DNA of 64,000 nt from an uncultured Gammaproteobacteria bacterium (GTDB taxonomy: Bacteria; Patescibacteriota; Patescibacteriia; Magasanikbacterales; UBA922): NCBI GenBank assembly GCA_964418775.1, contig CAYQNA010000003.1, positions 7,307 through 71,306 of the forward strand. Direction: 5' to 3'. Made by a program: the position numbers and the translations under genes. Every line of letters starts with the position of its first letter. Position 1 is the first letter of the stretch. A model generated the notes under the pieces. It had not been told where the DNA came from. It saw nothing but the letters and a program-made list of their open reading frames with translations, and did no database searches. This document shows, one piece after another, positions 39,035 through 60,148 of this stretch.

Positions 39035-39107
39035 AGGCGTATTGTAAGCGACCTAACAGGCCATATAATTAACCATACGCCCGAAGATAGTGATTTGTCA
39101 ACCTAAA

Positions 39108-39626
39108 TCACAGTCTGCGGCTGTCGTAAGCCCAGTGCAACACTGCCTGGCGTTGGCGTGGACGGCAAAAAATATCACCTGTGCGACAATTGCGCTTGAT
39201 TTGCATAAGGTGGCGCGAGATTGCTTTCCAGCGGCGAATTTGGCGCGCGTCTTCTTTTGGTAAACGGCGGCCCATGTAATAGCGACAATACCATTGAAAC
39301 CAACCACGCGGATCAACCGGATTAATCCAACCTTTGGCGCGCCACACTGATAACGGTTGACTCGCACGCACGCCAAAATAATTTAATTTACGGTCTGCTT
39401 TGATTGGACTTAGTTTCGCATGTACAAACCAACTCGCGGGAAATTCCGCACGGCAATCGGTCATATACTTGCCACCAAAAACCCCAAGCTCCAACATCTC
39501 GGCCGGAGTTAAATGCGGTTTAAATTCCGGGTCAAAATTTTTTCCAATCGGTTCGGTTAATTCGTATTCGTAATCTTGCTGCATCAAATCGTTCACGACC
39601 ACAGTTTTTGGTTTGCTGCGAGACAT
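39108..39626 (-). CDS. Hypothetical protein (W/Y/R-rich: GWFQWYCRYYMGRR)
   Basis: No recognisable family. Confidence 0.3.
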   Translation of the reverse strand: MSRSKPKTVVVNDLMQQDYEYELTEPIGKNFDPEFKPHLTPAEMLELGVFGGKYMTDCRAEFPASWFVHAKLSPIKADRKLNYFGVRASQPLSVWRAKGWINPVDPRGWFQWYCRYYMGRRLPKEDARQIRRWKAISRHLMQIKRNCRTGDIFCRPRQRQAVLHWAYDSRRL

Positions 39627-39627
39627 A

Positions 39628-40320
39628 TTATTGCAATTGATACGTCCCGAAAATCTCTAATGAATTGGAAGCACAAACACTATTGCACGCAATTAAATTG
39701 AGTTTAGTAATAGGCACCTCACCAATCACTATGGTTCGCAGTTCGCGTAATTTTTGTTTAAATGCTTCGCCCGGTTCATGCGCAAAACGACAAAACGTGA
39801 TATTCCCAAAGAAAATCGAATCAGACATTAATTTTTTGTTATCAGGCACACCAATGATTTTCAAATTACTGCCCAATGTTTGGACCAGTGCCCGCAAGCG
39901 TTCGTCACTGTAACCCATTAACGAAAGGCTGGCAGGAAAGCGAATTACATCCTCGAGTACAAACGAAAACGCCTGATGTTGCGGCACAGTGTCGCGACAC
40001 ATAGCATCCACCGCCTGCACATCATCAGCTGTGAACGTGGGCGGGTTGTTAATCACTTGCACGTTTTTAATCGTCAAATGCATTGATTCGGCCGGATAAA
40101 AATAATGCTCGGGTTCAATTGCACGCAGCGGCTCTATAACCTCACGAATAATTTTAGTACTGATTGCTACGGGCACAAACGCCACAATCGTTAAACAAAG
40201 TCGTTTATCGTTAATAAAATCAGTTGGCCCGGTAACAATTGTGGCTGGATACGCATCATGTGCCACCGCTTTTTCAAGCTCAAGCACTAATTTTTTCTGT
40301 TTATCTTGATACATACACAT
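39628..40320 (-). CDS. Hypothetical protein, possibly 2H phosphoesterase-like
   Basis: One H-x-T-like motif (SMHLTIK); second motif degenerate; weak. Confidence 0.25.
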   Translation of the reverse strand: MCMYQDKQKKLVLELEKAVAHDAYPATIVTGPTDFINDKRLCLTIVAFVPVAISTKIIREVIEPLRAIEPEHYFYPAESMHLTIKNVQVINNPPTFTADDVQAVDAMCRDTVPQHQAFSFVLEDVIRFPASLSLMGYSDERLRALVQTLGSNLKIIGVPDNKKLMSDSIFFGNITFCRFAHEPGEAFKQKLRELRTIVIGEVPITKLNLIACNSVCASNSLEIFGTYQLQ

Positions 40321-40323
40321 AAT

Positions 40324-41079
40324 TTAAGCACACTCTAGATACAGAGGGCTATGATCCGAAAGAACATCAGGCAAAACCTTAAATTCATTAATCGTAATTC
40401 CCCTACTCACCAGCGCATAATCCGCAAATTTCCCAGGCTTAGTGTACAACAGAGTGCGCGTGGATTGAATACTATTCTCAATGATTAAATTGTGCAGACC
40501 CTCATTTTCCAACATGCGCAGACTTTCGGTATTTGGCTCTAAATTAAAATCCCCAATGATTATATACGGGTGGTCGAGTGTTTGGGTGAACTCAATTATT
40601 TTTTGTGATTGTTCCAAACGCGCAGGTGTATCCCCTTTTCCACTTTTATTCCACAAACAATGAACATTAATTACCGTGCGCAAGCCCCCATCAGTTTTGA
40701 ATGTAATATAGTCGAAATTCCGCGCATGATCTCTAACTACTGTTGACGACGCATAACCAGGAATTTGGTACACATATTTCTCACCCTCACTCACAATTTC
40801 ATATGCACGATTAACCAAAATTGCTTGACCAAAAAATTTGTAAAAGGCCGGATGGAAAAACCCTTGATGGCTGGGAAAAAAGTCCTGCACTTTTGGCCAC
40901 AGTTGATATTCGACTCCAACCAATGAGAGGTCTTGTCCAACGATTGGAAATAAATCTTCGCCACCACTGATCATTTCCTGAAAACAAAAAATATCCACGT
41001 CACGGTGACGTTCAAAAAATTCGGCAAACGCTGGCCACTCTACTCGGCCAGCGTTAATATTAAGACTAATGATTTTCAT
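40324..41079 (-). CDS. Endonuclease/exonuclease/phosphatase (EEP) family protein
   Basis: SLNINAG...CFQE, IIIGDFN, SDHSPL motifs. Confidence 0.75.
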   Translation of the reverse strand: MKIISLNINAGRVEWPAFAEFFERHRDVDIFCFQEMISGGEDLFPIVGQDLSLVGVEYQLWPKVQDFFPSHQGFFHPAFYKFFGQAILVNRAYEIVSEGEKYVYQIPGYASSTVVRDHARNFDYITFKTDGGLRTVINVHCLWNKSGKGDTPARLEQSQKIIEFTQTLDHPYIIIGDFNLEPNTESLRMLENEGLHNLIIENSIQSTRTLLYTKPGKFADYALVSRGITINEFKVLPDVLSDHSPLYLECA

Positions 41080-41101
41080 ATTGGGCTAAGGGTACCACAA
41101 T

Positions 41102-41126
41102 AAAAAAACACCCTCAAGGTGTTTTT
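41102..41126. terminator. Bidirectional terminator AACACC-CTCAA-GGTGTT with A/T runs
   Basis: Hairpin plus flanking runs. Confidence 0.55.
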
Positions 41127-41179
41127 CAGATGGAATGACGGGGCGACTGATGTCGTCGCCCCGGGCCTTCGTTCCTTGG

Positions 41180-41296
41180 CTAGAACGAGTAGCCGCTCGT
41201 ACGGCCCGAGGCATGGTACGCCCGAGTGCAGCCGAAGCCGCGCTCGAAGTGCCACACCACATTGATGCCGTTCGCGCGCTTGACAGTGACGCGCAT
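41180..41296 (-). other. GC-rich, highly structured ~200-nt locus: 38-codon ORF (MRVTVKRANGINVVWHFERGFGCTRAYHASGRTSGYSF) with AAAGGAGG SD, or structured sRNA
   Basis: Own promoter, strong SD, multiple perfect hairpins (GTCCAC-TCC-GTGGAC; CGGC-UUCG-GCUG; GGGGCGAC-N7-GUCGCCCC), terminator. Confidence 0.3.
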
Positions 41297-41329
41297 GGTC
41301 CCTCCTTTCGTCCACGGAGTGGACAAGTC

Positions 41330-41358
41330 ATAGTACTCTAAAAAGCCACTTTTGTCAA
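41330..41358 (-). promoter_or_regulatory. Minus-strand sigma-70 promoter TTGACA-17-TACTAT for the GC-rich small locus
   Basis: Consensus spacing and hexamers. Confidence 0.45.
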
Positions 41359-41367
41359 GATTTTCTA

Positions 41368-41396
41368 TTGGAAGGGAAAGAAAAAAATGCTATGAT
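41368..41396 (+). promoter_or_regulatory. Promoter TTGGAA-17-TATGAT for greA; ATG 6 nt downstream suggests near-leaderless mRNA
   Basis: Seen in sequence. Confidence 0.4.
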
Positions 41397-41402
41397 GTGG
41401 CT

Positions 41403-41900
41403 ATGCGCACGCTTGATCGAAAACCAGGCAAATATGGGCAAATGAAAGCTGACCCGTTTTTGACCGTGGATAAATTTCAAGAATTGGAACGGCAGTTGGC
41501 CCGGCTCAAAAAAAGCCAACCCGAGGCTGCGGCCGAAGTGGCTCGTTTGGCTGAAATGGGTGATTTTTCCGAGAATTTTGCTTACCAGCATGCCAAAGGA
41601 CGCTTGCGCGGTATTAACCAACGCATTTTGGAACTTGAGCATAAATTAAACCAGGCCGAGGTAATTCAACCTGGTGGTATGGATACAGTAGAGGTCGGCC
41701 ATACCGTTACCGTGGAATGTGACGGTGCGCAAAAAACCTTCCAAATCCTAGGGTCGACTGAAACTGACCCTCGCCGCGGTGTGATTTCGCACAACTCCCC
41801 GATTGGCGCAGCATTACTTGGCCACAAAGTTGGCGATATTGTGACAGTAAAAATTGTCAACAAAGCGCGCGAATATCAAATCATTAGCATCACTGTATGA
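41403..41900 (+). CDS. greA: Transcription elongation factor GreA
   Basis: N-terminal coiled coil with GDFSENFAYQHAK, C-terminal FKBP-like; alternative start 41442. Confidence 0.8.
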   Translation: MRTLDRKPGKYGQMKADPFLTVDKFQELERQLARLKKSQPEAAAEVARLAEMGDFSENFAYQHAKGRLRGINQRILELEHKLNQAEVIQPGGMDTVEVGHTVTVECDGAQKTFQILGSTETDPRRGVISHNSPIGAALLGHKVGDIVTVKIVNKAREYQIISITV

Positions 41901-46102: not shown

Positions 46103-46127
46103 CAAAAAGACCTTGTGGGTCTTTTGT
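46103..46127. terminator. Terminator hairpin AAGACC-TTGTG-GGTCTT + T-run, downstream of intron-containing tRNA
   Basis: Seen in sequence. Confidence 0.5.
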
Positions 46128-46134
46128 ATACGAG

Positions 46135-46550
46135 CTCGACGGGTCGGATTCGAACCGACGACCAATTGGTTACACGTTATCCTTGCTTTCGCAAAGCGTG
46201 GACTATATCTTCACCCACGTCATAATCTGGTCAAGCCAGAAACGTTAGGGTGCGAAGCGCTTCCCCCGATAAATCGAGGTACTCCCATATGGGATAGTCT
46301 CTGAACCTTCAATGCCGTCCAGACAGTCATAAAGACAAATCCTTCTCAGCAAAGCTTGGCTGCAGATTGCCATATCCCGAACAAGTCGGGCTTTAGGTTT
46401 CCTGATCCGGTTAACCGGATTTTTCCAAATAAATGGAAAACAGTTCACTTCGTTTTTCATCCGAGCATTACTGCCCGGAGCTGCTATTCAGCTCTCTCGC
46501 GAGAGGAGCCGTAGCTACAGCCAACTGCTCTACCACTGAGCTACCGTCGA
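46135..46550 (-). tRNA. tRNA gene (U1-A72, G73) interrupted in the anticodon loop by a group I intron; spliced anticodon loop CUGUUAA (Asn, GUU) favoured, CUUGUAA (Thr, UGU) not excluded
   Basis: Intact acceptor/D arm (TCGACGG TA GCTC AGTGGTA GAGC) and T arm/acceptor (GTCGG TTCGAAT CCGAC CCGTCGA G) separated by ~340 nt carrying group I core elements; coordinates +/-2. Confidence 0.7.
46173..46516 (-). ncRNA. Group I intron (approx. boundaries) within tRNA
   Basis: Conserved R element GGTTCAGAGACTA and S element AAGATATAGTCC (P7 pairing GACTA/TAGTC), Q-like AATCTGCAGCCAAG; candidate IGS GCAGCU pairing exon GGCUGU with U.G at splice site; ends in G. Confidence 0.65.
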
Positions 46551-49468: not shown

Positions 49469-49948
49469 TTAGTAGCCCTTGGAGGGCGTGATAACGGCGT
49501 CGTTGACGCGGATGATCCCGCCTTCAAGGATCTCCGCAACAATGCCACCGCGCTCGGTGAACGCCTTCCGGAAGTCACCCTTGCCGGAGAGCTTGCCCGG
49601 AAGCGGGCAGGGGTCGCAGTACTTGATGCCGCGGAACTTTGCCTCTCCGACCTGGAATTCCACGTTAACCAGGTCAATGAGCTCGAAGCGCTCCTCACCC
49701 TCGGCCGCATCAACGATGAGGTTGCGACGACTGTCGGCGTATTCGAACTTCGTTCCCTCGAAGAAGCAGCCTCGGATGAGCGTGACCTGCCGTCGGCCCA
49801 CGTTCCCCTTGTTGAATCTCCCCTTCCCCGTGCAGTACCGGTCCCCCTCGAGGCCCTGGCCAGCGACGGCCCGGACCTCATCAACAAGACGCATCGGTGC
49901 ACCCGCTGCGGGCGCGATGCAGACTGCGATCACTTTTCCCTCAGGCAT
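49469..49948 (-). CDS. MOSC-domain protein (YiiM-like); GC-rich (~62%) compositional outlier
   Basis: GKVIAVCIAP...GLEGDRYC...RRQVTLI...RRNLIV...YCDPC pattern typical of MOSC; overlapping track ORFs on other frames are GC artefacts. Confidence 0.6.
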   Translation of the reverse strand: MPEGKVIAVCIAPAAGAPMRLVDEVRAVAGQGLEGDRYCTGKGRFNKGNVGRRQVTLIRGCFFEGTKFEYADSRRNLIVDAAEGEERFELIDLVNVEFQVGEAKFRGIKYCDPCPLPGKLSGKGDFRKAFTERGGIVAEILEGGIIRVNDAVITPSKGY

Positions 49949-58927: not shown

Positions 58928-60031
58928 TCAAATCAGCGCCGTCATGTCCCCGTCGGTGATGGGGATGAGCTCATCGCCCGCGACCTCGCGGGTGGCGAGA
59001 CCAATGTCGATGAGGACCTCCCAGCTGCGCGTGCCCGCGAGCGTGGGCGGATACCTCTGTGACACATTGTCATGGTCCACGGGCGCCTCCTCCATGACGC
59101 CCATGACCGCGTCGGTATGCAGATGCAGGAAGAGCGAACGTGCAACACGGAACGGCGAACGTCCATCCGCCACTGCCCCGATCACGGAGTTCGCCGCTCG
59201 CTGCGTGCACGAGACCTCGTGGTACCCCGCGAGAAAGTACCCACCGGTCACGTACTCGAGTTGCTGTCCGACCTGCACCAGGAAGCACCCGGGCGGGATC
59301 GAGACCTCGAGCTTGGTGCCGTCCCGAAGCCAGATCACCAACCCCGGGAACGTCGAGCGGTCGTGCGCCGTCAGGAACCCGAAGTCGTTGTGGCAGGCGT
59401 TGATGACGTCGCCCACCTTCAACGTGCTCAGGTCAATGGCGTTGAGGGCCAGGATCGTTGCACCGTCGATGAGTCGATGCGTGAGCCGTCCCGCCTTGAG
59501 CCCGAGCCCCCGCTCCACCAGCATCGTGCAGGTGAGAGAGGTGTTGATGAGCACCTGAGCCTGCCGGTCCATGAGGGACGGCCACAGGTCGGTGAACACG
59601 GCCGGCACGACCTGTTCCTCGCGCTTGTTCAGCTTGGGGAACCGCGTCTTGGCCGGCTGCGTACCCGCGCGCCACATGAACCGCATCTTGGGATCCGCGA
59701 ATCCGGCGGGGCACACGGTCGGGTAGTTCTCAGGGTTGAGCGTCCGGAGGAACTCCGCGCACTCGACCGCCTTCTCGACGCCCGGGGGCGTCAGTCCGAC
59801 CTGGTACCCGAGCTCCTCACGCACATCTGACGCCAGGAGCTCCCACGGCTGCGCGAAGTACTGCTGAGCCATGGTCCGGACCTGCACGTCCTCGCCAGAC
59901 GTGAGAACGCGCGGATCCCGCACGATGACCGCACCGAACCGGTGCAGGGCATCGACGAGCGTGCGCGCCGTGTCTAGGTCATCCTCACCCGCCAACGTGC
60001 TGGTGAGGTCGATGATGGGAAGATCCTTCAT
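58928..60031 (-). CDS. 2OG-Fe(II) oxygenase family protein (isopenicillin N synthase-like); GC-rich (~63%) outlier
   Basis: N-terminal DIOX_N-like LPIIDLTS...FGAVIVRDPRV, H-x-D (CHNDFG) iron-binding motif; GAGGTG SD before MKDLPI start; many overlapping GC-artefact ORFs. Confidence 0.65.
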   Translation of the reverse strand: MKDLPIIDLTSTLAGEDDLDTARTLVDALHRFGAVIVRDPRVLTSGEDVQVRTMAQQYFAQPWELLASDVREELGYQVGLTPPGVEKAVECAEFLRTLNPENYPTVCPAGFADPKMRFMWRAGTQPAKTRFPKLNKREEQVVPAVFTDLWPSLMDRQAQVLINTSLTCTMLVERGLGLKAGRLTHRLIDGATILALNAIDLSTLKVGDVINACHNDFGFLTAHDRSTFPGLVIWLRDGTKLEVSIPPGCFLVQVGQQLEYVTGGYFLAGYHEVSCTQRAANSVIGAVADGRSPFRVARSLFLHLHTDAVMGVMEEAPVDHDNVSQRYPPTLAGTRSWEVLIDIGLATREVAGDELIPITDGDMTALI

Positions 60032-60110
60032 TGTCACCTCTTGCGCTTGAGACCACTGCGGTCTGGCTTTTAAATACCATAAACAAGCCAAAAACGCAAC
60101 TAAAAAAATT

Positions 60111-60148
60111 TGAAAACAAAAAATCCCCCACCACATGGGCGAGGGATT
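60111..60148. terminator. Terminator AATCCC-N16-GGGATT + U-run on minus strand downstream of rpsI
   Basis: Seen in sequence. Confidence 0.5.

Follow-up and report, generated by a model that had tools for sequence, protein, structure and literature searches.

In leader-peptide attenuators of the trpL/hisL type, a promoter is followed by a short open reading frame (ORF), a terminator, and the downstream operon, in that order. SgrS/SgrT, RNAIII/hld, and SR1/SR1P are dual-function sRNAs, which encode small peptides, and in the ompA and ermC type of mRNA, a stem-loop at the 5' terminus acts as a stabiliser. Strain-specific small ORFs (microproteins) are also reported from ribosome profiling in mycobacteria (PMC4633059); ORFs of this kind are very short, with their own promoter, ribosome-binding site, and terminator and with no detectable homologues.

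The locus described here lies on the minus strand of the window (the whole 64-kb stretch of DNA that was analysed) and can be compared with all of these systems. From 41358 to 41102, it comprises a promoter, a 5' hairpin, a Shine-Dalgarno (SD) sequence, a 38-codon ORF, a GC-rich hairpin, and a U-tract terminator. This is the order seen in trpL/hisL attenuators, and the U-tract lies only 22 nt from the next start codon, that of an endonuclease/exonuclease/phosphatase (EEP) family gene; however, the unit has neither an antiterminator nor a run of regulatory codons, and it lacks conservation upstream of EEP homologues. As a structured RNA of ~200 nt with a small ORF, it is like the dual-function sRNAs, but it shows no sign of acting by base pairing, matches no Rfam family, and is not conserved. 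Its hairpin, which begins no more than 1-2 nt from the predicted 5' end and precedes the ribosome-binding site, is reminiscent of the ompA/ermC stabilisers, and a co-positioned hairpin is present in a close relative, L164. Unlike the ompA/ermC case, the transcription start of the unit is a predicted one, and the hairpins of the unit and of L164 each give a z of about -1.4. Finally, the unit shares with the mycobacterial microproteins the features listed above, and it differs from them in that it is known from sequence alone, that its host is otherwise without SD-led genes, and that its untranslated regions (UTRs) frame unrelated genes in relatives.

We favour, with a probability of roughly 0.55, the interpretation that the locus is an mRNA-type unit for a strain-specific orphan 38-codon ORF, situated in a recurrent slot divergent from greA in a Patescibacteria lineage (Magasanikbacteria/Falkowbacteria-like), and that it is not a conserved sRNA. 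In favour of an mRNA, all of the signals occur in the right order and with the right spacing. Against it are the orphan status of the peptide, a coding score of only about +1 bit, a predicted pairing of the SD sequence, and a host that otherwise does without SD sequences.

Layout of the unit and folding of its RNA

The promoter (41330..41358, minus strand) is of the sigma-70 type, with TTGACA at 41358-41353, a 17-nt spacer, and TACTAT at 41335-41330. A promoter scan scores it as 10/12, and its spacer is within the 16-18 nt expected of a sigma-70 promoter, making it a predicted promoter of this class. The context of its -35 element, CTTGACAA, recurs at the matching place divergent from greA in L164, L032, L003, and L004. 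The 5' UTR (41297..41324, with a predicted transcription start at ~41324-41322) begins with the hairpin GUCCAC-UCC-GUGGAC (41324-41310), which is followed by the SD sequence AAAGGAGG (41308-41301), the four nucleotides GACC, and the ATG at 41296. The ORF and its TAG stop codon (41182-41180) occupy 41180..41296 and specify the product MRVTVKRANGINVVWHFERGFGCTRAYHASGRTSGYSF, of which ANGINVVWHFER is a segment. The 3' UTR contains a GC-rich stem-loop (41132..41175) whose core, CGGGGCGAC-N7-GTCGCCCCG at 41163-41139 (as RNA, CGGGGCGAC-GACAUCA-GUCGCCCCG), is extended by GGAA/UUCC. The promoter, SD-N4-ATG, 38-codon ORF, 5' hairpin, and 3' hairpin of the initial annotation are thus all present. Its description of several perfect hairpins needs a small correction for the one inside the ORF, CGGC-TTCG-GCTG (41240-41229), which contains one G.U pair.

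The unit ends with the intrinsic terminator A5-CACC-TTGA-GGGTG-T7 (41102..41126, minus strand; DNA, AAAAACACCTTGAGGGTGTTTTTTT; RNA, AAAAACACC-UUGA-GGGUGUUUUUUU). An 11-bp stem, including A:U extensions, is followed by U7, which corresponds to the stable stem-loop and U-run of an intrinsic terminator. A terminator had been proposed for this locus, correctly, but it is located just outside the end originally assigned to the locus (41127) rather than within it. A simple terminator scan did not list the structure at 41126-41102, probably because the A/T runs lengthen the stem.

The unit has a GC content of 65-68%, compared to 47% for the window. In 120-nt windows, the maximum at the unit is 68%, against a mean of 47% (sd 6.8%), and the GC content jumps sharply at both edges. 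Further regions of at least 60% GC exist in the window, and the composition of the unit is consequently extreme but not unique.

A 236-nt RNA representing the unit folds with -105.8 kcal/mol (z = -5.0), and none of 200 shuffled sequences folds as well. The opposite strand is nearly as well folded (z = -4.2), and the ORF alone gives z = -1.96. Two hairpins are individually significant, the 3' GC-rich stem-loop (-23.8 kcal/mol, z = -4.15) and the terminator hairpin (-10.9 kcal/mol, z = -3.9). The 5' hairpin alone has -8.5 kcal/mol and is, like that of L164, not significant on its own (z about -1.4 each). Thus, the bulk of the folding signal is due to the UTR hairpins and not to the ORF, and the earlier characterisation of the locus as GC-rich and highly structured is borne out for the transcript as a whole, but the structure resides mostly in its UTRs.

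The predicted folds also bear on translation and termination. An alternative pairing at the 5' end, between GUCC.ACUCC and GGAGGGAC, sequesters the SD sequence and is favoured at -11.8 kcal/mol over the simple 5' hairpin at -8.5 kcal/mol. In the full-length fold, the SD pairs with the 3' segment GUCaUUCC. Prediction thus places the SD of the unit in a pairing whether the RNA is folded locally or at full length, and translation of the 38-codon ORF may therefore be structurally damped; the SD of L164 is free in its predicted fold. At the other end of the RNA, no antiterminator was found. When the 3' arm of the terminator is blocked in a constrained fold, the 5' arm is left unpaired, and the energy cost of the blocking, 10.8 kcal/mol, equals the energy of the hairpin itself. 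The lack of a competing antiterminator argues against a riboswitch or a classical attenuator.

The order of the parts was read from the sequence; that the unit is transcribed and translated, and that its peptide has any function, is inferred. In the mRNA interpretation, the near-consensus sigma-70 promoter would start transcription at ~41324, and the hairpin at the extreme 5' end would probably stabilise the transcript. The perfect SD, 4 nt ahead of the ATG, would direct translation of a basic, predicted beta-rich peptide of 38 residues. The strong GC-rich stem-loop and the U-tract terminator would then end most transcripts, and the EEP nuclease gene, which begins 22 nt further on, would probably be supplied by read-through.

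The 38-codon ORF and the search for homologues

The composition of the ORF is that of coding DNA: its GC content at codon positions 1, 2, and 3 is 53/55/87%, a periodicity that spans the entire ORF. When codons were scored by the usage of the two clearly GC-rich genes of the window, the log-likelihood ratio was +1.0 bit in the ORF frame and -7 to -38 in the other five. The ORF frame is the best of the six, and 0.6% of shuffled sequences reach the observed score (p about 0.006). By composition and frame, then, the ORF behaves as a protein-coding gene, with a signal that is modest because only 37 codons could be scored. Such a pattern, which is unexpected of an RNA gene, would be that of coding or recently coding DNA from a background of higher GC content. 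However, ORFs are present in all six frames of the GC-rich stretch, and by our own calculation, the chance expectation for an open frame of this length at this GC content is ~39%. Together with the order of the signals, the coding-type frame upholds the initial proposal of a discrete promoter-to-terminator unit with a small ORF.

By inspection of its sequence, the peptide is basic and hydrophilic and lacks a hydrophobic stretch. A single-sequence AlphaFold model contains three beta strands, with a pLDDT of 64 that is too weak for a fold search. A type I toxin peptide was considered and rejected, given the lack of a hydrophobic stretch and of any antisense promoter in the scan. The locus had been thought to be unannotated, its ORF missed by length cutoffs. 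This is not the case, since the exact 38-aa product is recorded from NCBI and Logan and the peptide is a called gene on a Logan contig.

The peptide forms a singleton 90% cluster. In a phmmer search of 1.84 billion representatives, the sole hits besides the peptide itself were two artefacts, repeat proteins whose scores come from a repeated 13-aa motif (ANGxxVVWxxxR) of a beta-propeller repeat protein. A word-indexed search of 5.8 billion clusters returned the peptide alone. No family of Pfam, NCBIfam, or PADLOC was matched, and Pfam was null even at E <= 10. Membership in a conserved small-protein family was accordingly rejected, with no homologue in other genomes among the 1.84 billion representatives and 5.8 billion clusters. 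An origin as a fragment of a known larger gene was also rejected, the only resemblance being that inflated by the 13-aa repeat, with Pfam null at E <= 10 and the slot ORFs of L164, L032, and L003 (see below) dissimilar.

At the nucleotide level, no match to the region was found in Rfam 15 at the gathering threshold. At E <= 10, there were only chance-level matches of 15-17 bits, compared to gathering scores of 47-91. Searches of the element by blastn and nhmmer against 80 greA loci and 78 EEP loci gave same-species copies only, and no nucleotide homologue was found among 180 related or pattern-matched loci. Collections of plasmids and phages held nothing meaningful for the element, and no second copy exists within the 64-kb window, leading us to reject a repeated element such as a REP or MITE. 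The initial annotation had held that a conserved small peptide might be encoded here and had named a lack of conservation in relatives, at the level of both peptide and structure, as the outcome that would speak against it. Neither the peptide nor the nucleotide search found a homologue in relatives, and with neither the peptide nor any structure internal to the ORF conserved, the idea of a conserved peptide is contradicted by the test that came with it; the peptide is instead a singleton.

In viral contigs, searches with the peptide and with the pattern of the 5' hairpin and SD were both null, and searches with the hairpin and terminator patterns yielded generic GC hairpins and a single low-complexity terminator match. 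The latter is a stretch of 25 nt, AAAAAACACCTTGAGGGTGTTTTTTT, that is identical in an unrelated AT-rich viral contig (L178-L180, IMG/VR) with no other similarity to the unit, an identity that is probably the result of low-complexity convergence. It serves as a warning that identity of a terminator is by itself no proof of homology.

The SD sequence sets the unit apart from the other genes of its host. GGAGG is found upstream of none of the 71 long ORFs of the window, making the perfect SD of the unit atypical for this organism. Counted over both strands, AGGAGG appears 19 times, by estimate no more often than base composition would predict. A -10 box lies 5-14 nt before the ATG in 10 of the 71 ORFs (~14%), versus 5% at random positions. 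This suggests that leaderless mRNAs may be frequent in the host, that of greA (ATG 41403) included. A literature search found nothing specific on the use of SD sequences in Patescibacteria. As the only gene with a GGAGG-type SD among those checked in 64 kb, the unit could be a probe for translation start in reduced bacteria.

The slot divergent from greA

The gene greA (41368..41900, plus strand), a conserved landmark by which relatives were retrieved, is transcribed divergently from the unit; its promoter is TTGGAA-17-TATGAT (41368-41396), and it starts at ATG 41403, as a leaderless type, or at ATG 41442. By the relatives retrieved with GreA, the window belongs with uncultured Patescibacteria related to Magasanikbacteria and Falkowbacteria. 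On the other side of the unit, all on the minus strand, are the EEP gene (40324..41079; 251 aa; Pfam PF03372, E = 1.1e-13), a 2H-phosphoesterase-like gene (40320-39628), a 172-aa gene of unknown function (39626-39108), and a YtxH-like gene (39034-38543). As judged by synteny, the segment from greA to the YtxH-like gene (39035-41400) varies among close relatives (L001, L163, L164, and L165) and may hold the EEP nuclease, the 2H-like gene, an MBL-fold (Apyc1-like) gene, and orphan ORFs. In L163, whose GreA is 87.5% identical, there are only the 2H-like and 172-aa genes, separated from greA by a gap of ~55 nt, so that relative to L163, both the unit and the EEP gene are extra. L001 has an MBL-fold gene at this site. 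In L164 (GreA identity, 79%), the order is orphan ORF, MBL (Apyc1-like) gene, and 2H-like gene. More distant relatives have the 2H-like gene in clusters with NUDIX, Ham1, Maf, and HD genes of nucleotide house-cleaning.

The orphan ORF of L164 (190 aa, within L164 2375-3150) is framed by signals homologous to those of the window. On the 5' side, CTTGACAA-17-TAGTGT is followed by a 5' hairpin, by GAGGAG as the SD, and by an ATG that aligns with that of the window, with a column identity of 73%. On the 3' side, the stop codon has an aligned CTAGCC context, and after it come a stretch rich in purines, a GC stem-loop, and, as terminator, AAAAAACACCTTGtGGGTGTTTTTTT. L164 3121-3155 is 88.6% identical over 35 nt to the terminator of the window and the similar sequence downstream of it. 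Between these signals, the 190-aa ORF, which has a normal coding periodicity (GC1/2/3 = 61/37/67%) and is itself an orphan, is unrelated to the 38-aa ORF at both the DNA and the protein level.

In L032, L003, and L004, a TTGACAA promoter is found at the same distance from greA as in the window, and the slot ORFs exceed the GC content of their genomes by 13-17 percentage points. That of L032 (L032 1858-2400, minus strand) encodes 156 aa without a Pfam match. The ORF upstream of greA in L003 spans ~199 aa, and its product contains an alpha-CTD domain of RNA polymerase (E = 2.4e-9); that of L004, in the same position, has 157 aa or more; a weak match to sigma-70 region 4 was also noted for the L003/L004 protein. 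A clear SD precedes the slot ORFs of L164 and L032, and an SD-like motif that of L003. At the same position of their 3' UTRs, L164, L003, and L004 share with the window a GC stem-loop and, after it, a motif resembling CCCGTTC. The slot proteins of L164, L032, and L003/L004 and the 38-aa peptide have no mutual relationship, and the GC3 of the relatives' slot ORFs is 67-70%, versus 87% for the 38-codon ORF. Since relatives have long protein genes inside these signals, the signal frame is one used for mRNAs. The homology of the slot rests mainly on one close relative, L164.

These observations can be extended to a more general model, which we regard as rather doubtful. In it, the leading signals (promoter, 5' UTR, and SD) and the trailing ones (GC hairpin and terminator) would form a conserved landing frame, in which unrelated, GC-richer orphan genes would be swapped by recombination among Patescibacteria. 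Such a cassette-exchange hotspot would have the 38-codon ORF as its smallest known cargo, and the frame would supply a translation signal in genomes otherwise devoid of SD sequences. Taken alone, the unit adds another orphan small ORF from an uncultured bacterium, and one already listed by gene callers. A slot that holds unrelated, GC-richer genes under similar expression signals is the more interesting lead, as it may mark a hotspot of gene turnover adjoining greA and, if such turnover is general, would bear on the origin or capture of orphan genes in CPR genomes.

The EEP gene, whose start codon is 22 nt past the end of the terminator, is absent from this site in L163, L164, and L001. No promoter was found by the scan on the minus strand between the terminator and the EEP ATG; by eye, a weak possible promoter, TTGAGG-17-TACCCT, overlaps the terminator. 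The EEP gene is probably fed by read-through from the promoter of the unit, which would be the simplest source of EEP transcripts. No element-like sequence occurs upstream of 78 EEP homologues, and the GC-rich stretches found there in L087 and L144 belong to a coding gene, judged from its sequence to be a candidate PAP2-type membrane phosphatase. A link to defence systems was rejected (PADLOC null), as was an operon link, because EEP homologues elsewhere do not adjoin the 2H-like or 172-aa genes. With a unit of 65% GC next to an EEP gene of 41% GC, the insert is itself a mosaic.

Copies of the unit and competing explanations

Copies from the same organism were found in Logan, ENA, and JGI assemblies. 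They are identical over the element, save for one extra A in the A-run of the JGI terminator, and the unit is thus real DNA. Element and flanks are 100% identical between the window and Logan; ENA matches across the element and JGI over the part covered. One low-coverage ENA contig of 874 nt (L162, ERZ4216102) agrees with the window at 100% over the unit and the start of EEP but at only ~70% over the greA flank, and within EEP, ~40 nt have been exchanged for other sequence. This mosaic points either to strains having recombined or to a chimera arising at low coverage. An assembly chimera or a contaminant fragment in the contig of the window itself could be suspected from the sharp GC jump at both edges and from the mosaic contig. 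We find it hardly credible, however, given the full identity to Logan, the ENA and JGI matches (the latter with its one extra A), and the homology of the AT-richer promoter and terminator flanks to L164.

Of the explanations that accept the unit as genuine, a collapsed remnant is possible, though less than likely. A slot gene of 150-200 aa would have been deleted down to 117 nt of GC-rich, coding-derived sequence between conserved UTRs, so that an RNA would be made but the peptide would have no selected function. The relatives' ORFs of 156-199 aa in the matching signal frame, the start and stop contexts that align with L164, the orphan peptide, and the barely positive coding score are all consistent with this. 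Yet neither the DNA nor the peptide retains any detectable likeness to a slot ORF, the GC3 of 87% exceeds the 67-70% of those ORFs, and the reading frame is unbroken between the ATG next to the SD and the stop. Likewise, as the initial annotation considered, the unit may derive from a larger GC-rich gene that has degraded. In the mRNA interpretation, too, the strain-specific orphan ORF, whose composition is that of coding DNA of higher-GC origin, could be a young or captured microprotein gene or what is left of a larger slot gene.

The remaining explanations assign the function to the RNA. The unit might be a cis-regulatory leader of the EEP operon, a structured 220-nt leader that attenuates transcription of the nuclease gene by way of a leader peptide or a riboswitch-like element. 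The short distance from the terminator to the EEP ATG, with no other promoter in the scan, and the presence of two anti-SD-like segments, GUCCaCUCC and GUCaUUCC, that could sequester the SD would fit such a leader. We nevertheless consider it unlikely. The constrained fold reveals no antiterminator, Rfam gives no riboswitch or leader match, and the peptide has no run of regulatory codons. Furthermore, the 78 loci of EEP homologues have nothing comparable upstream and no conserved sensor domain there, the same terminator ends an ordinary 190-aa gene in L164, and the weak TTGAGG-17-TACCCT candidate seen by eye over the terminator may offer the nuclease gene a promoter of its own. A structured sRNA had been one of the two original proposals for this locus; a trans-acting or dual-function one of ~220 nt, with an ORF that is incidental or secondary, appears very unlikely. 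It can appeal to the z of -5.0, to several stable hairpins, a UUCG tetraloop, and a closing pairing of the 5' and 3' ends in the minimum free energy structure, and to the unit's own promoter and terminator. However, there is no Rfam family even at E <= 10, only identical copies and no homologue were found, the ORF part folds no better than chance, and a 3-nt GC periodicity is unexpected of an RNA gene. The sRNA proposal thus finds neither comparative nor Rfam support, and relatives house long protein genes in the same signal frame.

Elsewhere in the window, two further GC-rich genes, both on the minus strand, have probably been acquired horizontally, judging by their composition. One (58928-60136; 63% GC, GC3 82%) has a weak match to 2OG-Fe(II) oxygenases, and the other (49469-49948; GC3 78%) has a MOSC domain. 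The gain of higher-GC DNA is thus not unique to the locus of the unit. An intron-split tRNA gene, missed by ARAGORN, was also noted at 46125-46550 (minus strand). Its 5' half, TCGACGGTAGCTCAGTGGTAGAGCAGTTGGCT..., and its 3' half, ...CCAATTGGTCGTCGGTTCGAATCCGACCCGTCGAG, flank an Rfam match to a group I intron at 46180-46456. The identity of the tRNA depends on the junctions: if the 5' exon ends with U 46519 and the intron with G 46175, the spliced model is a tRNA-Thr(UGU).
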